A stretch of 64,000 nt of DNA from positions 64,001 through 128,000 of the forward strand of contig CAMTVK010000021.1 in assembly GCA_947085185.1 (NCBI GenBank), read 5' to 3'. Shown here piece by piece: positions 1-62,308 of the stretch. Below the pieces are notes generated by a model. It had not been told where the DNA came from, searched no databases, and worked only from the letters and a program-made list of their open reading frames with translations. The position numbers and the translations under genes are program-made. The first letter of the stretch is position 1. The number at the start of each line of letters is the position of its first letter. The DNA comes from Candidatus Fraserbacteria bacterium (lineage in GTDB: Bacteria; Bipolaricaulota; Bipolaricaulia; RBG-16-55-9; DRXL01).

Positions 1-1091
1 CTCGAAATAGTTTTGGGACTAGCCTCGGCAGTTAAGCCGTGGGGGTAGAGCACTGGATGGATGCGGGGCAACCCAATTCCAACCAAACTCCGAATACCAT
101 GGCGCACCTGCCGGGAGTCAGACGATAGGGGATAACCTTTATCGTCGAGAGGGAAACGGCCCAGATCGTCGGCTAAGGCCCCAAAGACCGAGCTAAGTCA
201 GGAAGGATGTGCCCCTGCTTAGACAGCTGGGAGGTTGGCTTAGAAGCAGCCATCCTTTAAAGAGTGCGTAATAGCTCACCAGTCGAGCGGGAGTGCGCCC
301 AAGATTCAGCGGGAGTTAAGCTCGGCGCCGAAGCCACGGGAGAGTCTCCGTCTCCGACGGAGGCTACGGTAGAGGAGCATTCCGCCTTAGGCCGAAGTCG
401 TGCCGGAAGGCACGGCGGACGAAGCGGAAGAGAGAATGCAGGAATGAGTAGCGCGAGGTGAGCGAGAAACTCACCCACCGTAAGTCTCAGGGTTCCTGGG
501 GAAGGCTCATCCACCCAGGGTTAGGCGGCCCTAAGCTCAACCCGCAAGGGGTAGGCGATGGACAGCCGGTTAATATTCCGGCCCCTCTCTGTGGCGATGA
601 CCAAAGGGGGGACGCATCAGGTCGCTTCAGCGGGCGGACGGATGTGCCCGTGTCAAAGACGAGGCATCCGGGCGTAGGCAAATCCGCGCCCGGGTCAAGT
701 CGAGTCGAGACGGAGGTCCTACGGGACCGAAGGAAGAGCGATCAGGTGCCGAGAAAATCCTCTAGGGAGCCACAGAGAGCCCGTACCGCAATCCGACACA
801 GGTAGACGGGCAGAGTATGCTCAGGTGGGCGAGAGAACCATGGTCAAGGAACTCGGCAAAATGCTCCCGTACGTTCGCAAGAAGGGAGGCCCCGCGTAGG
901 GCAGCGATGTCCGAGGGGGCCGCAGAGAGCAGGCTGGGGAGACTGTTTATCAAAAACACAGCACCCTGCTAACTCGAAAGAGGACGTATAGGGTGTGAGA
1001 CCTGGCCACTGCTGGAAGGTCAAGGGGAGGGGTTCACGCCCCAAACTGAAGCCCCAGCGAAGGCCGGCGGTAACTATAACTGTCCTAAGGT

Positions 1092-1362
1092 TCAAAGCGA
1101 GCCTTAGTAAAACCCGGCTATATGCTGGAAACTCCGGTGAGTATCCCACGCTACCTTCTCTACATGGCGAAGGTGACAATGCGATGGGTGCGGACAACCA
1201 GCAGGAAAGGTTGCCGCTTGAACGGCAACTTCCTCAGAGACTGTACGCCGGGCTCCGCGAAGAGCGGATGAAGATACAGTCCGAGCTGCACGGCGACGTG
1301 CAGAGTCTGGTTCGCGCCAGACCGCCTTGCCAAAAGCAAGGTCAACCAAAGTAACAGATCTG
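1092..1362 (+). mobile_element. Group I intron at 23S position ~L1931 (IB-like core), ORF-less, 271 nt
   Basis: Splits CCTAAGGT^AGCGAAA. Exon ends in U, intron ends in G. P1: CTAAGGT pairs with GCCTTAG (1101-1107), U.G at the splice site. Core motifs TATGCTGGAAA, AACCAGCAGG, TCAGAGACTG, AAGATACAGTCC. Confidence 0.93.
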
Positions 1363-1382
1363 AGCGAAATTCCTTGTCGGGT

Positions 1383-1719
1383 AAGTTCAGTTGCCCGTAC
1401 CGGCTTATAACGGTGAAGCCCTCACTCGTTGCGGTCGCAAGGAGCCGTGCTCAAGAGTGGGTAACACCGTGGGAAGTCGGACTCAAGAGAGTCTTGACCC
1501 CGTAACGACTGAGGTCGCAAGACCGAGATAGCAGCCCTGTCTCGACAGAGACAAATTTAAGCTGCTATAATACGCCGGCACTGCTTTGAGTTTGCTTGGC
1601 CAGTGAGGTGAGGTCGAGATCATCGAGCTGATCTTCACCATTAACACTGGCAAGCGGAAATATCCAAAAGAAGCAGTGAAGATATAGTCTACGCCTCTGG
1701 AGAACAGAGGGAGAACGTG
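1383..1719 (+). mobile_element. Group I intron at 23S position ~L1951 (IA3-like core), ORF-less, 337 nt
   Basis: Splits GTCGGGT^AAGTTCCGAC. P1: CGGGT pairs with GCCCG (1393-1397). Core CGGTGAAGCCC..GGGTAACACCG, GTAACGACT, extra P7.1/P7.2 hairpins, AAGATATAGTCT. Terminal G at 1719. Confidence 0.92.
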
Positions 1720-2030
1720 AAGTTCCGACGCGCATGAATGGTATAACTATCCCAGCGCTGTCTTGACCATGGGCTCGGTGAAATTGAAGCACCGGTGAAA
1801 ACGCCGGTGACTCGCGGCAGGACGGAAAGACCCCGTGGAGCTTTACTGGAACTTGGCATTGGGTCTCGACGTTCGTTGTGTAGGATAGGTGGGAGCCGGA
1901 GAAGTCTCCGCGCTAGCGGGGATGGAGGCGTCCTTGAAATACCACCCTTCGTTCGTTGCGACTCTAACCCACGGCTGTACAGCAGTCGGGGGACCGTGCT
2001 AGGTGGACAGTTTAACTGGGGCGGTTGCCT

Positions 2031-2932
2031 CAACAGTGGGGCAACGCAAATCCGGCTATATGCTGGGAAGTCCGTCCCCTCACAGGGGTGCAGTGTCCGG
2101 CGCTACTAGTCTGAGACTAGTGAAAACGCGCGCGGCGCGGACAATCAGCAGGGAAGTCTTGGGAAGACCCCTCAACGACTGCACGCCGGACGGCACAGGT
2201 GTGCCGATGATACAGTCTGAACTTCCCGGCGACGGGAAGCCGTCTTAGGACGGGGTTCGGTCTAAAGAGGTGAGCTGCGTGCGGTCTCGACAGATCGAGA
2301 TGTATAAGCAGAAGCTCGCCCTCACAGATATCCAACGAGAGATACTCGTTGGCCTGCTGCTTGGCGATGCCTGCCTTGAAACACAGAATCGGGGCAGGAC
2401 CTATAGGCTCAAGATCGAGCACAGCGTTGCTCAAGCCCAGTATGTGCAGCACCTCTATGAAGTTTTTCGGGAGTGGGTGCTGGGTGGACCGCAGGTCAAG
2501 AGCCAACGGATCGCGGGCAAGATCTATCACAAGCTGTGGTTCAATACTGTGAGCCATAGCGCCTTCCGATTCTATGCTCAGCAGTTCTATCGGAACGGGG
2601 TGAAAGTCGTGCCTAAGCTGATCCATCGGTTTCTGACTGCACGGGGCTTGGCATACTGGTTCATGGACGATGGCTCGATCAAGTCGAAGGAGTCCAAAGC
2701 AGTGCTCTTCAACACCCAGGGTTTTGGCAACCACGATATAGCCAGGCTCATTGGGGTGTTGCAAGGGAAGTTTGGGCTGGAGGCCAAGCGCAGGTCTCAG
2801 CCGGAAGGGCAGCAGATCTATCTCTCTGGGAGATCCTATGAGCGTTTCTGTACGCTCGTCGAACCCTATGTGATCCCCCAGATGCGCTACAAGCTGCCTG
2901 AAAAAAGAAGCAGACCGAACTTAACGGAATTG
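2031..2932 (+). mobile_element. Group I intron at 23S position ~L2262 (IB-like core) with homing endonuclease ORF, 902 nt
   Basis: Splits GCGGTTGCCT^CCTAAAGAGTAACGG. P1: GTTGCCT pairs with GGGCAAC. Core TATGCTGGGAA, AATCAGCAGG, TCAACGACTG, ATGATACAGTCT. Terminal G at 2932. Confidence 0.93.
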
Positions 2933-2944
2933 CCTAAAGAGTAA
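2270..2944 (+). CDS. Double-motif LAGLIDADG homing endonuclease (I-SceI-like, LAGLIDADG_2)
   Basis: Motifs LVGLLLGDACL and LAYWFMDDGS. Lies downstream of the intron core. Start uncertain (GTG 2270 or ATG 2300). Confidence 0.92.
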   Translation: MSCVRSRQIEMYKQKLALTDIQREILVGLLLGDACLETQNRGRTYRLKIEHSVAQAQYVQHLYEVFREWVLGGPQVKSQRIAGKIYHKLWFNTVSHSAFRFYAQQFYRNGVKVVPKLIHRFLTARGLAYWFMDDGSIKSKESKAVLFNTQGFGNHDIARLIGVLQGKFGLEAKRRSQPEGQQIYLSGRSYERFCTLVEPYVIPQMRYKLPEKRSRPNLTELPKE

Positions 2945-3096
2945 CGGAGGCGCGCAAAGGTCGGCTCAGCCGGGTTGGCGATCCGGCGGGGAGTGCATGG
3001 GCATAAGCCGGCTTGACTGTGACCCCGACAGGGGGAACAGGTGCGAAAGCAGGCCCAAGTGACCCGGTGGCTCTGTGTGGAAGGGCCATCGATCAT

Positions 3097-3127
<31 letters not shown>

Positions 3128-3614
3128 AGTACCGCCCGAGAGTACACATCGACGGCGGTGTTCGGCACCTCGATGTCGGCTCAACTCATCCTGGGGCTGA
3201 AGCAGGTCCCAAGGGTCCGTCTGTTCGCCGGTTAAAGAGTTACGTGAGCTGGGTTCAGACCGTCGCAAGACAGGTCGGTCCATATCCGCCGCGAGCGCAA
3301 GAGGCTTGAGGGGCACTCTCCCTAGTACGAGAGGACCGGGAGGGCTGGACCTCTGGTGTACCAGCTGTTCTGCCAAGAGCACCGCTGGGTAGCTATGTCC
3401 GGACGGGATAAGCGCTGAAGGCATCTAAGCGCGAAGCCCACCCCAAGATGAGGCCTCTGAGAGCCCTGGGAGAACACCAGGTTGATAGGCCGCAGGTGTA
3501 CGCGCAGCAATGCGTTCAGCCGAGCGGTCCTAATCGCTCCGTCGTTTGCGCGACGCACTCTATTCACTTTTGAGGGATCGAGGCGCCTGGGGGGCGTGGC
3601 GGTCCCTAAGAGAT

Positions 3615-51793: not shown

Positions 51794-54700
51794 ATGGCGC
51801 AGAAGACTCGCACGACCAAGACCACGCCGACTGCCAACGAGACGGTCGAGTTCTTCGGGGGCGACGAGCTGCGGATTCGCTGTTTTTTAGATAAATATGC
51901 CCTGCGCGATCTGTCGGGAAAGATCATAGAGAAGACACCACTAGAGATGTGGGAGCGTGTGGCGCGCGAGATCGCGTCAGTAGAGACTGATCCCAAGAAG
52001 CGTCGCGAGTGGGAGAAGAGATTCTCTTGGCTCTTGGAAGACTTTCGGTTTATCCCTGGGGGACGGATTATGTTTGGTGCGGGGCAGCCCCGACGCGCTA
52101 CGTTGCTCAACTGTTACGTCATTCCCATTAAAGAAGATTCTATTGAAGGAATCTTCGAGTGGTGTAAAGAAGCCGCGCGAACATATTCTCTTGGGGGCGG
52201 CGTCGGCACGGATATCTCTATCTTGCGCCCCAAAGGCTCCCCCGTCAATAACTCGGCGATCTATTCTTCAGGTTCAGTCAGCTTCATGGAGCTCTTCTCG
52301 ACCACAACGGGGACGATCGGACAAAGCGGCCGGCGCGGCGCCCTCATGATCACCATCAGCGTCGACCATCCTGATATATTAGATTTTATCGAGATCAAGA
52401 ACGATCCGGAGCGTCGCAAAGTCCAGTATGCCAATATCAGCGTGCGGGTCACCGACGAGTTCATGAGAGCTGTGGAGCGCGACGAAGAGTTCCTGCTGCG
52501 TTATGAGAGTGAGCGAATCGGGCGGTTTGAGAAGAGGGTTCGGGCGCGCGAGATCTGGGAGAAGCTCGTGAAGAACGCGTGGGCCTCTGCCGAGCCGGGG
52601 GTGATCTTCTGGGACACGGTCAAGCGCGAGTCTACTACCGAATATAACGGCATGGAAGTGATCACGACCAACCCGTGCAGCCTCACAGGGGAGACGCGGG
52701 TCTTCACCCCACAGGGGTTGATACGGCTCGATGAACTTGTGCTCTCCGCGACGCTGACACGCCAGATGCCGCGCGTTCTCATTGACCGTCGCGCTCAAGA
52801 CAAGAGGGGCATTGAGGCAGTCGCCGCCGATCGCGTAGCCTTCACAGGGATCAAGCCGATCTGGCGAGTCGAGACCTCTTCGGGGTTCACGCTGAGGGGT
52901 ACGTGCGAGCACAAGGTCAAAGTCCTCAACAGCTCAGAGTATGACCCGGAGCACCAGTCATATGGCTGGAAGCGCATAGACGAGCTACGCCCCGGCGATC
53001 TCTTAGCTTTGCCTGATCTGAACGATGAGACTTGGATAGAGCAGGTCTTCAGCGGTCGTTCCTGGGAGCTCCACATCGATGAGAGCTATGTCCAGCCGCG
53101 TCGGCGAGATGCCCACTATCGCTTCATAAATATCCCCAAGCGCTGGACAGAGGACTTGGCGTATCTGTTGGGATATGCTGTGGGCGATGGCCGGCCTCAC
53201 AGCAAGCGTCTCGATTTTGCTGCACCGTTCCAACGCCTGCTCCAGCAGCTAGGGCTTCACCCGGAGAAGGGCGTGGCCAAGCATGTGCCGGAGACGATCT
53301 TCCGCGCCCCACAGGAGATCACCGCAGCGTTCTTGCGTGGGCTCTTCGACGCCGACGGCACAGTCTCCAATCCCTCCCAGCGCCCCATGATCTCACTCTC
53401 CTCGATCTCGCGACAGCTCATCGAAGAGGTGCAGCTATTGCTCCTGCAATTTGGCATCTTCTCCAGCATCACTATCTACAAAGCTGCTGACAAGAACAGA
53501 TGCCGGACGACGCCGTTTTGCTATCGTACAGTCAGCGGAGAAGAGCGCATCTATCAAGCGAAGCACGATCTCCATAAGCTTTGCATCACGAGCTATCCGT
53601 GCTTGGAGCGCTTCTCTCGGTATATCGGGAGTGCGCTCACGGCCCGAAAGCACAAGATCGCGGCACTGCTCGCGCACCGCACCATGCCGCTCCGCCCTGT
53701 GACGACCACTACCAAAGTCACGCGAGTCGTTCCAGAAGAAGTCTGCGAACCCGTCTACGATCTGACGGTCCTCGATACAAAATCTTTCTTGGGGAACGGG
53801 CTCATCGTGAGCAATTCGGAGATCCCCCTTGAAGCCTACGGCGCGTGCTGTCTGGGCAATATCAATCTTGCGAAATTTGTGCTCGACAGCTTCACTCCCA
53901 CTGCTCGGGTCGATTGGCCCACCTTAGAAAAAGCCCTGCGCTACGCGGTGCGCTTTTTAGACAACGTGCTCGACTACAACGCCGACAAACACCCGCTGCC
54001 GGCGCAACGCGAAGCCTCGCTGAGATCACGCCGGATTGGCGTGGGCTTCACAGGCTTTGGCGATATGCTCATCAAGCTCAATCTCAAATATGACTCCGAG
54101 GAAGCTCTCAAGTTCACAGATAAACTCTTCGAGCGCATCAAGCACATCGTCTACGATGAGAGCACAGAGTTAGCTGTGGAAAAGGGGGTTTTTCCGGCGT
54201 TCGACTGCGAGCAGCATCTGGGGAGCGCGTTCATCAAGCGTCTCGATCGGGCTCTCATTGAGAAGATCAAGAAGAACGGCTTAAGAAACGCGGCGCTGCT
54301 CACGGTGCCGCCGGTGGGGTCCGGATCGGTCTTGGCCGGCTGCTCCTCGGGGATCGAGCCGATCTTTAGTCTGAGCTATGTGAGAAAGTCCAAGTCGCTC
54401 AGCAAGAGCGAGTTTGAGGTCAGCCACCCTCTGGTGCGCGCGTACCTGGAGAAGACAGGACTTTCCAGCATCAATGAGCTTCCCCAGACGTTCGTCACGG
54501 CGCACGAGATCGAGCCTATGATGCGCGTGCGCATGCAAGCGACCATTCAGAAGCACATTGACCATGCGATCTCCAGCACCGTGAATTTAGCCAAGGACGT
54601 CTCGCCCGAGACTATTGGGGATATATACTTTGAAGCGTGGAAGGCCGGGTGCAAGGGGATTACTGTGTATAGAGAGGGCTCGCGCGAGGGAATCCTGCTC

Positions 54701-55255
54701 ACACAAGCAGAGGCCAAAGAGCGCGAAAAACCCGGACGCGCGACGCTCGTGCCGCGCCCACGCCCTAGAGTCGCCAAGGGCAAGACCTACAGAATGAAGA
54801 CCGAGCTGGGCACAGTCTTCATCACCGTCAACGAAGACGAAGAGGGGATCTTTGAAGTGTTTGTGCAGGGGCTGGGCAAGTCTGGCACTTCAACCGCCGC
54901 GTTCACTGAGGCGATCGGACGTTTGATCTCACTGGCGTTGCGCTCTGGGGTCAAGCCCAGCGCGATCATCGATCAATTGAGCTTGATTCGTGGCTCGCGC
55001 CCAGTCGTCCAAGAGGACGGCACCGTGGTCTTCTCTGTGCCCGATGCGATCGCGAAAGCACTCGCAGAATATCTCAAAGGTGGGGAGCAGCTGACGCTGC
55101 TGGCAGAAGTGAAGCCGCGGCTGCCGCAACCAACGGAGATCAACGGGCACGATGCCAAGCGCGACGTCGAGCTCTGCCCCAGCTGCGGCGGCGTGCTGAT
55201 GTTCACCAACGGCTGCTATATCTGCAGCGACTGCGGCTTCTCCGAGTGCGATTAG
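51794..55255 (+). CDS. nrdJ: Adenosylcobalamin-dependent (class II) ribonucleotide reductase, intein-containing
   Basis: LNCYV, RRGALM, TNPC/SEIPL split by an intein, SSGIEP, KGITVYR, C-terminal TSCPD-like and Cys-ribbon domain. Confidence 0.93.
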   Translation: MAQKTRTTKTTPTANETVEFFGGDELRIRCFLDKYALRDLSGKIIEKTPLEMWERVAREIASVETDPKKRREWEKRFSWLLEDFRFIPGGRIMFGAGQPRRATLLNCYVIPIKEDSIEGIFEWCKEAARTYSLGGGVGTDISILRPKGSPVNNSAIYSSGSVSFMELFSTTTGTIGQSGRRGALMITISVDHPDILDFIEIKNDPERRKVQYANISVRVTDEFMRAVERDEEFLLRYESERIGRFEKRVRAREIWEKLVKNAWASAEPGVIFWDTVKRESTTEYNGMEVITTNPCSLTGETRVFTPQGLIRLDELVLSATLTRQMPRVLIDRRAQDKRGIEAVAADRVAFTGIKPIWRVETSSGFTLRGTCEHKVKVLNSSEYDPEHQSYGWKRIDELRPGDLLALPDLNDETWIEQVFSGRSWELHIDESYVQPRRRDAHYRFINIPKRWTEDLAYLLGYAVGDGRPHSKRLDFAAPFQRLLQQLGLHPEKGVAKHVPETIFRAPQEITAAFLRGLFDADGTVSNPSQRPMISLSSISRQLIEEVQLLLLQFGIFSSITIYKAADKNRCRTTPFCYRTVSGEERIYQAKHDLHKLCITSYPCLERFSRYIGSALTARKHKIAALLAHRTMPLRPVTTTTKVTRVVPEEVCEPVYDLTVLDTKSFLGNGLIVSNSEIPLEAYGACCLGNINLAKFVLDSFTPTARVDWPTLEKALRYAVRFLDNVLDYNADKHPLPAQREASLRSRRIGVGFTGFGDMLIKLNLKYDSEEALKFTDKLFERIKHIVYDESTELAVEKGVFPAFDCEQHLGSAFIKRLDRALIEKIKKNGLRNAALLTVPPVGSGSVLAGCSSGIEPIFSLSYVRKSKSLSKSEFEVSHPLVRAYLEKTGLSSINELPQTFVTAHEIEPMMRVRMQATIQKHIDHAISSTVNLAKDVSPETIGDIYFEAWKAGCKGITVYREGSREGILLTQAEAKEREKPGRATLVPRPRPRVAKGKTYRMKTELGTVFITVNEDEEGIFEVFVQGLGKSGTSTAAFTEAIGRLISLALRSGVKPSAIIDQLSLIRGSRPVVQEDGTVVFSVPDAIAKALAEYLKGGEQLTLLAEVKPRLPQPTEINGHDAKRDVELCPSCGGVLMFTNGCYICSDCGFSECD
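52679..53815 (+). mobile_element. Intein (379 aa) with LAGLIDADG endonuclease domain
   Basis: Block A SLTGETRV, block B TCEHK, EN motifs LLGYAVGDG and FLRGLFDADG, block F VYDLTV, block G NGLIVSN/S. Removal restores TNPCSEIPL. Confidence 0.93.
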
Positions 55256-58890: not shown

Positions 58891-60210
58891 TTAGGCTCTC
58901 CGGACGATGAGCGTGCCGTTCTCAATGCGCTCGACGCGCACTGATTCACCAGGCTTGATCGGTCCGTCTACCGCCGTCGCTCTCCAGTACTCGCCCGTGA
59001 TAAAGACCATCCCCGTGGGGTTGAGCTCGTCGCGCGCGGTGCCCACCGCGCCGATCATCCCTTCTTTGCCCGTGGCTACGGGCTTGCGCTGAATCAATAA
59101 GCCCTTCGTCACCATGAAGACAAAAAGTGCCGTGATCGTCCCAACGGTCGCAAAGATACTGATGGGCGAGATACTGAGCGCCGGAGCTTCGAAGCTCTCA
59201 AAGTTAAAGAGCATAAACGACCCGATCAACAGCGAGATCACTCCACCAATAGTCAATGCTAGATGCGTCGGCGTAAAGAGATCGATGACCATTAACGCTG
59301 CTCCCAAGAGCATGAACGCGAGCCCTGCGACGTTAAAGGGCAAGACCTGCAAGCCCAATAGCGCCAGCAACAGACAGATCGCGCCGCCGATCCCCACCCC
59401 AAAGCCGGGCGTGAAAAACTCTGCGATCAGTGCGTAAATCCCAATAGTCAGCAACAGATAGACCACATTAGGGTCGGCCAAGTAATTCATCACTAGTTCT
59501 TTGAAGGTGCGCTCGTAGGTCTTGAGCGCCACGCCGGACGTCTGCACGCGTATCGTCTGGCCGTCGCGCTGGAGCTCATAGCCGTCCAGACGCGCAAGAA
59601 GCTCTTCGCGGCTGTTGGCGATCAGATTAATAATATTATTCTGCAGGGCTTCTTTGGCGGTGAGCGACTTGCCTTCCAAGACGAACTTCTCGGCCCATTC
59701 TTTGGAGCGCCCGCGTTTTTCTGCGATCTTCCGTGCTTCCGAAGCCACGAATTCTAAGATCTTTCTGCGGGCGGGGTCTTCTGAGCTGGGCTGCTCGCCC
59801 TCGCCGGGGCCCATGGAGATTGGGGTCGAAGAGCCGATATTAGTCCCTTCGGCCATGGCGGCGATATCCGCGGCCATGGTGATAAATGCTCCAGCAGAAG
59901 CAGCGCGCGCGCCTGCAGGTCCCACCCAGACCACTATGGGGATTGGGGCATTCAAGATCGCCGTGACCATGTCTTTGGTGGACTCGAGCAATCCGCCGGG
60001 GGTGTCCAGACGAATCACTAACAGCGATGCGCCATCGCGATGGGCTTCAGCAATGATGCGCAGCAGAAAATCTTTGGTGATGGGGTTGATGGAGCTTTCC
60101 AGCTCGGAGTAAGCGACCAATGGGGTAGGGGCTTGGGGCTGGCCCAGCGCGAGGGCGACTCCCAAGCCCAGCGATATCAACCCGAGCCCGACTCGTATGA
60201 CGTGGCGCAT
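58891..60210 (-). CDS. nfeD: NfeD family membrane serine protease (ClpP-like domain, TM region, OB fold)
   Basis: LDTPGG, ARAASAG, GEYWRA. Confidence 0.9.
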   Translation of the reverse strand: MRHVIRVGLGLISLGLGVALALGQPQAPTPLVAYSELESSINPITKDFLLRIIAEAHRDGASLLVIRLDTPGGLLESTKDMVTAILNAPIPIVVWVGPAGARAASAGAFITMAADIAAMAEGTNIGSSTPISMGPGEGEQPSSEDPARRKILEFVASEARKIAEKRGRSKEWAEKFVLEGKSLTAKEALQNNIINLIANSREELLARLDGYELQRDGQTIRVQTSGVALKTYERTFKELVMNYLADPNVVYLLLTIGIYALIAEFFTPGFGVGIGGAICLLLALLGLQVLPFNVAGLAFMLLGAALMVIDLFTPTHLALTIGGVISLLIGSFMLFNFESFEAPALSISPISIFATVGTITALFVFMVTKGLLIQRKPVATGKEGMIGAVGTARDELNPTGMVFITGEYWRATAVDGPIKPGESVRVERIENGTLIVRRA

Positions 60211-60234
60211 ACTACAATGGTGGAGGTGGCGGGA

Positions 60235-60944
60235 CAGCATTTCCAGTCCTTTCGAACTGGGCTGGACTATGCCTTCATCCCTTGCGGGATGCGGGGCGTG
60301 TTAGCGCTTGCATGAAGCGCTCCTAGTACCCACCCTCCCCACAAAGAAGAGTGGAGTCGGTGGGCCTATGAGTCTCTACAGGGCCGGCCTGAGGTTAGCC
60401 CCCTTCCGACCCCTCGGCGTTGCCATCGTGTGTTTGGGCACACAAGCAGGCTTCGCCGATGTGAGCCCCGTTGTCACCTAGACATCGCTGCCTAGGGCGA
60501 CCTTGTGAGGTTATGGCGAAGAATTCTTTAATAAACTGCTCTCGTTGCTTTAATAGCTCGGCAGAGTATCTGCCGTTGCGGGGTGTAAGAGCTCGATAGC
60601 GATATAGCACCAGCTCTGCTCGGTGTCGTTTGTAGCTTCGCAAATGAGACGCAACTTGCTTAAGAAGAGCAAGAGCTTGGGCGTTAGATATGGCATACGT
60701 ATAGCTAGGCGTATGCTCAGGCTTATAGACGCGCTTCGTTGTAATCCGACCGGCGCCAACCACCTTCTGCACCCACGCCAGCACTGAGTGCTCCGTACTG
60801 CTGATCGAAACCAGCAGATGTCGATGGGCGCCTCGGTACTTACGAGTGAGGGTGATGGTGCCCTCACCGTCAATTAATCCGGCAAGATAAGCGCGTTCAG
60901 CTGTGGTCAGCTCTCTGACACCCTGCACCATAACCTCGATGTTG
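60235..60944 (-). mobile_element. Group I intron (IA3-like core) in the tmRNA T-loop, 710 nt
   Basis: Exon ends in U, intron ends in G. Core ATCGGCGAAGCC..GGCAACGCCGAG, GTAGAGACT, P3 GGGGC/GCCCC, P8 CATCCC-GCAA-GGGATG, AAGGCATAGTCC, P9 hairpin. Confidence 0.9.
60395..60931 (-). CDS. Single-motif LAGLIDADG homing endonuclease inside the tmRNA intron
   Basis: AYLAGLIDGEGTI motif followed by a typical LAGLIDADG beta-sheet pattern. Confidence 0.9.
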   Translation of the reverse strand: MVQGVRELTTAERAYLAGLIDGEGTITLTRKYRGAHRHLLVSISSTEHSVLAWVQKVVGAGRITTKRVYKPEHTPSYTYAISNAQALALLKQVASHLRSYKRHRAELVLYRYRALTPRNGRYSAELLKQREQFIKEFFAITSQGRPRQRCLGDNGAHIGEACLCAQTHDGNAEGSEGG

Positions 60945-61317
60945 ATCGAACCCGCGTCCGGAGATGCTTTCGCTTGGCATCTACAGGCTTAGTTCGGTGT
61001 TTTGCTTTGAGATCAGCCGCTCCCACCGAACAGGATCGGCTGATCCGAGCTCCATTGAGAGATTCCCACGCGCCCCAGAGCTGAGCGCGCGGTCAGCCCG
61101 TTTTGTCGGTCCCTTGCGCGAGCCAACGGGCAAAGCTCCGCGCAAGAGATGCCTCCCTTAGTTCAGAGAAGCAGTAGCGTAAGCAAAGTTGTTGGCACTT
61201 ATGGGCCATCGGCCGTTTTTGGGAGGTGGCCGCAACTCCGCCTGCAGCCTCCCTGCCGCATCCCCGTCGAATCCAGTGCACCCCCATGTCAAAGACCATG
61301 CGCGCTGCGCACCTTAT

Positions 61318-61345
61318 ATTATAGCAGAAGATTGTGCGCCTTCAA
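61318..61345 (-). promoter_or_regulatory. ssrA promoter
   Basis: TTGAAG-16 bp-TATAAT with extended TG, about 30 nt upstream of the mature 5' end. Confidence 0.6.
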
Positions 61346-61348
61346 CTA

Positions 61349-62308
61349 TTACGGGCGCTCCAGCTGGAGCGTCGCCTCCGGGAAGGCTTCTAAGACCGGG
61401 ATGCCCAGCCAATCCGAAGGAATGACCAATCCCAACGCGGCCAGCACCGTTGCTGCCGTATCGTAGATACGAATGGGCTGAGCGAGCTCGCGCCCGATCT
61501 CGATCCGTGAGGTCCACAATATCCAAGGGATCGTCAGGTCTCTGGGGTCGTCGGTGCCGTGGATGCGCCCATGCCCCCCATGATCGGCTGTGACGATGAT
61601 CACGGAGTCATTGAGGATCTTTAAGTCTTCGAGATTCCTGAGCAAAAGCCCAATCGCCTTGTCCACCCGCTCAATCGCTTGGAGCTGCCGCACGGTCATC
61701 CAGCCATAGCGATGGCCCACGTCGTCCACGTCCGACAGATGCAGAAAGACCAATCGCGGACGGTGCTCTGAAATATATTCTATCGCTTCTTTGATCAGGG
61801 TTTGCGCATCGCTATTGATGACAAAGAGCGGGGTCTTTGGTGGGAAGAGCTGCTCGAGCTTGCGCTTGCTCACAAACGCTGCGGTCGAGATATGGTCTCC
61901 CTGGGCGATCTCAAAGATAGTGGGCACGGTGATGCGTCCCAGCTCGGGAGCCCAGTAATTCCAAGTAATGCGATGGCGCTCCGGAGGGACGCCGCTCAGC
62001 AGCGACGCTATCGCGGGCAACGTCAAGCTGGGCAGCACCGTCTGGGCGGTCCAACTGTAGAGCCCGGACTGCCAGAGTCTGTCAAGATTTGGAGTCTGAG
62101 CCCGCTGCAGCGCATCAGGGCGCAGCCCATCAACGACGATGACGAAAACAAAATAGTCTTTCACCGTGAAATGGCGTACTTTTGGAGGCAGCGGGGAGAT
62201 CGTCGGAGGAGGCGGCGGGGGCGCCACGACTGAAACCGAAGGGGCCTGAGGAGGCGGCAGGCTCCCCAAGGCGACAAAGAGCAAAAAGAGCAAGAATTCA
62301 AAGCGCAT
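61349..62308 (-). CDS. Alkaline phosphatase superfamily / nucleotide pyrophosphatase-like protein
   Basis: VDGLRPD, PSLTLP, DDVGH, TADHGG. Confidence 0.85.
   Translation of the reverse strand: MRFEFLLFLLFVALGSLPPPQAPSVSVVAPPPPPPTISPLPPKVRHFTVKDYFVFVIVVDGLRPDALQRAQTPNLDRLWQSGLYSWTAQTVLPSLTLPAIASLLSGVPPERHRITWNYWAPELGRITVPTIFEIAQGDHISTAAFVSKRKLEQLFPPKTPLFVINSDAQTLIKEAIEYISEHRPRLVFLHLSDVDDVGHRYGWMTVRQLQAIERVDKAIGLLLRNLEDLKILNDSVIIVTADHGGHGRIHGTDDPRDLTIPWILWTSRIEIGRELAQPIRIYDTAATVLAALGLVIPSDWLGIPVLEAFPEATLQLERP

Follow-up and report, generated by a model that had tools for sequence, protein, structure and literature searches.

The first group I intron of a tmRNA gene is said to have been described by Williams in 2002, in Clostridium botulinum. 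A large survey (PMC11915505) counts 883 intron-form tmRNA genes in 21 phyla, 36 of them with a homing endonuclease gene (HEG). Of its founding 23 HEGs, 19 are placed in the P7.1 region and 4 after P9; HEGs are given for 4.1% of tmRNA introns vs 54% of archaeal rRNA introns. The accessible part of PMC4383926 holds nothing on HEGs. A second set of described systems comes under collaborative (trans) homing, in which a free-standing endonuclease and a group I intron lacking an ORF share one site. The accessible part of PMC3984707 gives F-CphI and the cyanophage psbA intron as an example, and it also treats the invasion of introns by HEGs and ORFs that overlap intron cores.

Here we report on a locus in a stretch of 64,000 nucleotides (the window) from a Bipolaricaulota genome, whose ribosomal proteins and SmpB fall into 90% clusters together with proteins named Candidatus Bipolaricaulota. 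The intron class to which it belongs is already catalogued, and for a specialist the split gene would be ordinary on its own. What is unusual is the position of the HEG, in the P1 loop, a site that is not listed in the accessible part of PMC11915505. The earlier note on this DNA held such a gene to be uncommon, which overrates its rarity in view of the 883 genes and 36 HEGs of that survey; it also missed the P1-loop site and the mostly free-standing layout of the family. We are reasonably confident of the following joint reading: a likely self-splicing intron sits in the T-loop, and an intact gene in its P1 loop encodes a predicted two-subunit endonuclease that would home into intron-less T-arms.

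The ssrA gene and its exons

The sole ssrA gene of the host genome lies on the minus strand (61285-60218) and is interrupted within the T-loop. The features are as follows.

61318..61345, minus strand: candidate sigma-70-like ssrA promoter (TTGAAG, 16 nt, TG-TATAAT), by consensus match only
60945..61285, minus strand: ssrA exon 1, with the 5' acceptor strand, tag frame, pseudoknot region and 5' T-arm half to U(-1) (Rfam, ARAGORN)
61158..61196, minus strand: tag reading frame ANNFAYATASLN* (ARAGORN, after in silico joining)
60235..60944, minus strand: group I intron of 710 nt at T-loop position 7 (TTCGAT/T), omega-G at 60235 (joining, fold, covariation)
60944..60948, minus strand: 5' strand of P1 (CGAU/C), pairing with the internal guide GGUCG at 60502-60498
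60926..60937, minus strand: 5' arm of the P1-extension helix, 12 bp, holding the HEG start codon 60931-60929 (fold, alignment)
60395..60931, minus strand: LAGLIDADG ORF of 178 aa (ORF call, Pfam, fold model, selection, dimer model)
60507..60518, minus strand: 3' arm of the P1-extension helix, codons F-A-I-T-S (fold, alignment)
60235..60502, minus strand: ribozyme core (fold, covariation, minimum-energy fold)
Core, first half: guide 60502-60498; P2 60496-60477; P3 60470-60465/60297-60292
Core, continued: P4 60459-60454/60419-60414; P5; P6 60413-60380; P7 60376-60371/60268-60264
Core, end: P7.1 60368-60324; P7.2 60321-60303; P8 60291-60276; P9.0; P9 60260-60243
60218..60234, minus strand: ssrA exon 2, with the last T-loop base, 3' T-stem, acceptor strand and encoded CCA (sequence, in silico joining)

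Exon 1 (341 nt) ends on GGGTTCGAT and exon 2 (17 nt) reads TCCCGCCACCTCCACCA. Between them, the intron (60944-60235, 710 nt) closes on a terminal G and separates T-loop bases 6 and 7, which is position 7 in the numbering of PMC11915505. When the intron is removed in silico, ARAGORN calls a 358-nt tmRNA; the exon-exon junction expected after splicing reads GGGTTCGATTCCCGCC. The joined exons regain the 7-nt T-loop, the acceptor stem with its G3.U70 pair (read from the sequence), the CCA and the tag frame, as expected of an intron-form tmRNA. The split of ssrA in the T-loop and the intron with a terminal G, both proposed in the earlier note, are thereby borne out. Its warning that standard finders miss the gene is right for ARAGORN, which does not call the unspliced ssrA; it does not extend to Rfam RF00023, which finds exon 1 only (134 bits) and gives it wrong ends. 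We found one promoter site, against a mean of 0.5 in shuffled sequences.

In the genome, which is 96.8% complete and has an intact smpB, the RF00023 search detected no second ssrA copy. The 15 other weak matches to this model stay below the cut-off, and those checked are tRNA genes. The intact copy elsewhere that could have undone the note's proposal was thus not found. With smpB present and no other ssrA found in the genome, mature tmRNA requires splicing, which supports the note's view that trans-translation depends on it. DNA contigs from public runs of two different studies bridge both intron-exon junctions: one (X2), of the study from which the genome possibly comes, spans 60685-61450, and the other (X5) covers 60188-60399 with zero differences. 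Altogether, the locus is a real and probably functional intron-form tmRNA gene.

Downstream on the same strand, an NfeD-like ORF (58891-60240) was called from an ATG at 60240, inside the last bases of the intron; an in-frame ATG at 60210, 7 nt past the CCA, more likely serves as its start. The stretch from ssrA to this gene yielded no terminator.

Fold and covariation of the group I intron

All helices from P2 to P9, including P7.1, P7.2 and P9.0, can be drawn in the intron. The P3-P7-P8 and P4-P5-P6 domains are present with the conserved G-binding site in P7, and the 5' splice site is marked by a U.G pair in P1 that is invariant in the nine rows of related introns (the +1 pair is found in eight rows, the remaining one being gapped). 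The two extra stems, P7.1 and P7.2, lie between P7 and P3'; we take them to be the mark of subgroup IA and label the intron accordingly, with IA3 as a candidate finer label.

Across the nine related introns, 97.0% of cells are paired and 27 pairs have changed on both sides; none of the 500 shuffles scored as high, and slid controls reached 35-41%. In an alignment of 58 cores, 54 of which were chosen from 99 distinct ORF-less introns, 93.2% are paired and P7 is invariant (58/58); the window's row begins 10 nt late there, which leaves four of its P2 pairs uncounted. Furthermore, energy minimisation without guidance finds both the nested helices and the P1 extension (z -5.8).

The region falls short of the gathering score of Rfam RF00028 (22.9 bits vs 50, E 8.6e-4, at 60243-60531), and two further Rfam scans gave no match to this model. 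The group I assignment therefore rests on fold and covariation. The covariation outweighs the borderline score, so that the check proposed in the earlier note, a group I model hit at 60235-60500, is answered by the alignment and only marginally by the model itself. As two of the window's 23S introns pass, RF00028 seems to score this intron type, or a copy split by an ORF, poorly.

These 23S introns belong to an rRNA gene on the plus strand (1-3553) with at least three group I introns by RF00028, matched at 1065-1303 (55.9 bits), 2021-2239 (61.6 bits) and, weakly, 1373-1711 (24.6 bits). A 224-aa ORF (2270-2944) follows the third of them and shows two LAGLIDADG-like motifs by eye. Elsewhere in the window, a ribonucleotide reductase gene (51794-55255, plus strand) has an intein-like insert holding a LAGLIDADG domain; the intein model scores 34.8 vs a cut-off of 35.8.

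The 710-nt length is no novelty. The accessible part of PMC11915505 describes tmRNA introns as 'none longer than 700 bp', and similar lengths are implied by its seed rows, which reach about 1087 nt, so we dropped this point.

The RF00028 score below cut-off, the silence of ARAGORN and an assembly in 32 contigs could also be read as signs of a gene broken by an insertion, or of a misassembly, from which no mature tmRNA is made. We regard this as very improbable, and largely refuted already: the copy is the only ssrA beside an intact smpB, both junctions are bridged in DNA contigs, the core covaries, and the same intron occurs at the same site, with its core, in six other genomes of the class.

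Joined tmRNA exons and circles of an ORF-less intron in RNA of a relative

None of six metatranscriptome runs (X15-X20) showed RNA of the window's strain or of any HEG-bearing copy. In four of them (X16, X18, X19 and X20), a tmRNA contig that resembles exon 1 at about 90% follows it to 60945 and then continues directly into exon 2. The same four runs each hold a second contig, a circular form of the intron without the ORF. Depths of the circle and tmRNA contigs stand in a ratio of 23-33 in all four. These runs come from hot springs, were sampled in a single year and may belong to one campaign. In three of the four, omega-G connects with three differing sites close to the 5' end of the intron, and the junction of the X19 circle is without the last three intron bases. 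Intron circles of this sort are known from other group I introns. The varying omega-G junctions would fit circularisation by the ribozyme better than a repeat in the DNA.

The variants of the tmRNA contig best match the intron-less genome G006 (24 of the 28 listed differences), so the joined contig could stem from an intron-less allele; at position -1 it has U, vs C in G006. The two other runs (X15, X17) yielded short tmRNA pieces only, with no intron, and the ORF is covered in none of the six, which says nothing about its expression. Splicing of the window's own copy is very likely.

The P1-loop ORF and its predicted product

The earlier note described a complete group I core and a 178-aa LAGLIDADG ORF. 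Both are there, but they are not separate: the nuclease fold (residues 1-143, 60931-60503) lies within the 441-nt P1 loop region, and the last ~36 codons run through P1-P6, with the stop in P6a. This core-encoded tail varies in length among relatives, and its six differences (ratio 0.6) give no clear sign of selection at the protein level.

The ORF product matches Pfam LAGLIDADG_3 (E 6e-6, 26.8 bits vs a cut-off of 22.5). NCBIfam has no family for it, and a PDB sequence search returned only weak LAGLIDADG matches (best E 0.024). The monomer model (pLDDT 93.8) has the alpha-beta-beta-alpha-beta-beta-alpha fold with a single LAGLIDADG motif (LAGLIDGEG), in which the acidic E23, a putative metal-binding residue, is invariant; its best fold matches are I-CreI, I-CvuI and I-MsoI, with TM about 0.7. 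A homodimer assembled through the LAGLIDADG helix is predicted with a score of 0.80, vs 0.00 for the best control (pLDDT 89). At least 97% of contacts are common to the runs, and the score may be due to resemblance to I-CreI dimers of solved structure; in our benchmark, the mark was reached by 20 of 30 known pairs and by 1 of 23 single chains.

Among 158 homologues, 47 columns are conserved at 85% or more, and the ORF keeps 46 of them, the one departure being R84A. Outside the helix arms, dN/dS is 0.08 vs G007, the closest intact relative (46 synonymous differences). Against the metagenome locus L208, dN/dS is 0.19. Judged by these codon comparisons, the ORF is intact and under purifying selection. 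The product is a putative endonuclease, and its location, selection and patchy distribution would be indirect signs that it cuts the intron-less allele and drives homing.

In one of its 22-nt registers, the spliced ssrA junction agrees with the genome's tRNA-Gly(TCC) (G000:C17:23153-23226) at 20 of 22 positions, and this tRNA gene is a possible off-target of the predicted enzyme. Given so close a match to the presumed target, the enzyme must discriminate finely or stay low.

Intron and HEG in the genus and class

Seven of the 13 other genomes of the genus have an intron-less ssrA, five carry the window's intron and one is truncated at a contig end. Among the five, the HEG is intact in G007 and deleted in G013, G003 and G009, and G002 has an ORF-less intron of 273 nt. 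In the core tree G002 groups with G007 (95/85), which suggests that its HEG was lost or replaced. Two further families have the intron, with the HEG deleted (G025) or cut by a contig end (G027). Over the 184 genomes of the class, eight match the protein and seven the core, the window's genome being counted in each. The HEG of the seven other intron-bearing class genomes is broken or gone in five, intact in one and cut by a contig end in one.

Intron presence is scattered over the exon-1 tree, with seven changes, a number as low as this arising in 140 of 500 shuffles. U at position -1 is found in all nine intron alleles vs 6 of 19 intron-less alleles. A single genus thus holds a natural series of intact, decayed, ORF-less and empty alleles, which would make both the homing cycle and the link between splicing and translation easy to test on short RNAs.

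A probable closing helix that holds the start codon

The ORF begins within the P1 loop, at base 14 of the intron; its start codon is part of the 12-bp helix that closes this loop. The closing helix is worth -22.9 kcal/mol, vs -17.8 for the best of the other placements (of 364); the equivalent helix of 101 free-standing homologues has a mean of -10.4 and a lowest value of -24.0. Over the nine introns, 87% of its cells are paired and one of its 12 pairs has changed on both sides. Both arms are kept in all four decayed alleles; in G025 the helix is no stronger than the best other placement.

A GAGG sits 2 nt upstream of the ATG. Such a spacing is too short for a usual Shine-Dalgarno sequence, so we rejected it as one, and we also rejected the GTG at codon 2 as a start, for it is not conserved. 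With the GAGG too close and the ATG paired, translation of the HEG is uncertain.

The intron might then splice around a HEG that is effectively silent here, its start locked and no usable ribosome-binding site at hand, and that has merely not yet decayed. The pairing of the ATG in a -22.9 kcal/mol helix, the four relatives with a deleted HEG and the one without it, and R84A at a family-conserved column would all agree with this. We nevertheless judge it unlikely, as a dN/dS of 0.08 over 46 synonymous differences points to long-term translation in the lineage, and several close homologues are intact (P0001-P0007, the P0002 cluster alone having 16 members).

Our preferred reading is as follows. 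The T-loop intron would splice itself out of the tmRNA precursor. The helix formed by the first and last codons of the ORF's nuclease domain would close the 441-nt loop, such that P1 can form, and would hide the start codon, the enzyme being made only from nascent or unfolded RNA. The predicted endonuclease would then cut intron-less copies of the same T-arm, into which the intron would be copied. The presumed target, about 22 bp of T-arm around TTCGAT/TCCC, would be split by the intron itself, protecting its own allele. The lineage may thus cycle through the homing stages of gain, decay and loss.

A LAGLIDADG family at the 3' end of ssrA

We found 1645 homologues of the ORF. Among the best 80 of 244 GTDB loci, a set from which the window's near relatives may be missing, 67 HEGs are free-standing behind an ssrA with an ORF-less intron, at a distance of 32-208 nt (63 recognised by pattern, four by eye), and eight lie beside the 3' end of an intron-less ssrA. 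Five are cut or of uncertain layout, and none is in a P1 loop. By record title, the hosts include Pseudomonadota, Nitrospirota, Chloroflexota, Planctomycetota and Verrucomicrobiota; the eight loci beside an intron-less ssrA are mostly from Patescibacteria and their T-arms are often altered. It is because 75 of these best 80 loci lie at the ssrA 3' end that we infer the target.

Metagenomes give a similar distribution: the best 80 of 527 loci, with some near-duplicates, comprise 54 behind an ORF-less ssrA intron, 18 beside an intron-less ssrA, two in loop 1 (L208, L209) and six of uncertain layout. Three further homologues (P0008, P0009 and P0110) end on the same core-encoded tail and are probably loop-1 proteins too; a member of the P0008 cluster carries the label Nitrospira. 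A tree of 55 of the 176 HEG rows has a clade of 13 loop-1 proteins (96/88); this sample leaves L209 and P0008 unplaced and does not fix the backbone, the direction or the number of invasions. The P1-loop HEG may derive from the free-standing family that flanks ssrA, with the direction of the move left unfixed by the tree.

Is the protein instead kept mainly as a maturase, helping the long-looped intron to fold? The Thermotoga neapolitana 23S intron protein, cited in the accessible part of PMC3984707, is a precedent, and the ORF is under purifying selection. This is quite improbable in our view. ORF-less versions exist (G002, and 107 ssrA introns of 250-363 nt) and form circles in RNA, and the family is mostly encoded outside introns, eight of the best 80 GTDB members even lying beside an intron-less ssrA. 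Moreover, the putative DNA-contacting and catalytic columns are conserved.

Intron and HEG also travel together at the level of genomes. The family of G184 has 106 genomes, 29 with the intron and 19 with the HEG; of the 29, 17 have both, 16 of them with the HEG right beside the intron. As relatives, these genomes are no independent cases, and either element can be missed where a genome is incomplete. Such adjacent free-standing HEGs may explain the gap between 4.1% and 54%, since the survey, as far as its accessible part tells, counted only HEGs inside introns.

Three further observations concern these loci. In seven (L082, L089, L101, L105, L111, L137 and L138), a free-standing homologue lies beside an intron-less ssrA whose T-arm is often altered, with an extra or missing base or a changed loop; this would fit self-protection and intronless homing. 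A second ssrA 3' end, its T-loop often unsplit, follows the HEG in 8 of the 111 free-standing loci that have 200 nt of downstream DNA (L114, L115, L125, L130, L142, L150, L152 and L218; L117 is cut short). It looks like a displaced end, as if intron, exon 2 and HEG had entered as one cassette. Finally, among viral loci with 55 distant homologues (23-44%), the patterns used detected none in a tmRNA intron. ARAGORN, run on 40 of these 55 loci, called a tmRNA in five. Homologues at 31-44% adjoin these called genes, four of them permuted (L153, L157, L171, L176, L179), or sit in tRNA arrays (L154, L155, L159, L166, L168, L173).

With somewhat less assurance than for the locus itself, we lean towards a broader joint reading: one LAGLIDADG family would be a specialist of the ssrA T-loop across phyla, found in every state from free-standing to embedded, with the P1 loop as an undescribed state, and with collaborative homing on chromosomes and repeated intron invasion. 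Its route would pass from HEGs beside an intron-less ssrA with altered T-arms to HEGs behind an ORF-less intron, the commonest state, and to HEGs embedded at several sites. In the P1-loop state, the helix of the first and last codons would both rescue splicing and gate translation.

Comparison with known systems

The window shares with described intron-form tmRNA genes the position-7 site, the U(-1).G pair in P1, the terminal G and the core. ORF-less introns of its type are already in the seed alignment of PMC11915505, where L084 and L121 are rows with only the ORF-less intron included. In the accessible supplement, HEG-bearing seed rows show, by eye, AYLAGIIDGEGT or else T-x-RNG[KR]Y on the reverse strand, and because of these motifs the seed HEGs appear to belong to the same broad protein family as the window's ORF. 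Also by eye, several P7-region HEGs there run antisense to the intron, and it is in the second extra stem, P7.2 in our numbering, that the long insert columns lie. The window differs from the surveyed introns, as compared with the founding 23 of the 36 HEGs, in having its HEG in the P1 loop, in the overlap of ORF and core, and in a start codon locked in the closing helix; in the available seed alignment the P1 loop spans only about 65 columns, which leaves no room for an ORF. Our literature search, which covered few subscription papers, turned up neither a paper on tmRNA introns with a HEG in the P1 loop nor one on free-standing HEGs at ssrA.

As in collaborative homing, ORF-less introns and a family of HEGs meet at a single site (67 of the best 80 GTDB loci). 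The layout of a free-standing HEG and an ORF-less intron is not that of the window, where the HEG lies inside the intron; the model predicts an embedded end point, and the window shows the embedded state. Unlike F-CphI and psbA, the putative case here involves bacterial chromosomes, a structural RNA gene, a LAGLIDADG enzyme and several phyla. If our broader reading is true, collaborative homing would extend from phages to bacterial chromosomes, and the embedded P1-loop HEG would be the end stage of the predicted partnership of intron and enzyme.

Finally, the predicted protein resembles I-CreI, I-MsoI and I-CvuI, encoded in rRNA introns, in its fold and its predicted dimerisation through the motif helix. 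It differs from them by an identity of only 17-20% and by a family-specific TPRNG[RK]Y motif. Unlike the targets of the I-CreI group, its predicted target is a tRNA-like T-arm with near-copies in tRNA genes, and a small enzyme predicted to separate the tmRNA T-arm from those of tRNAs would be a useful case for the study of specificity.
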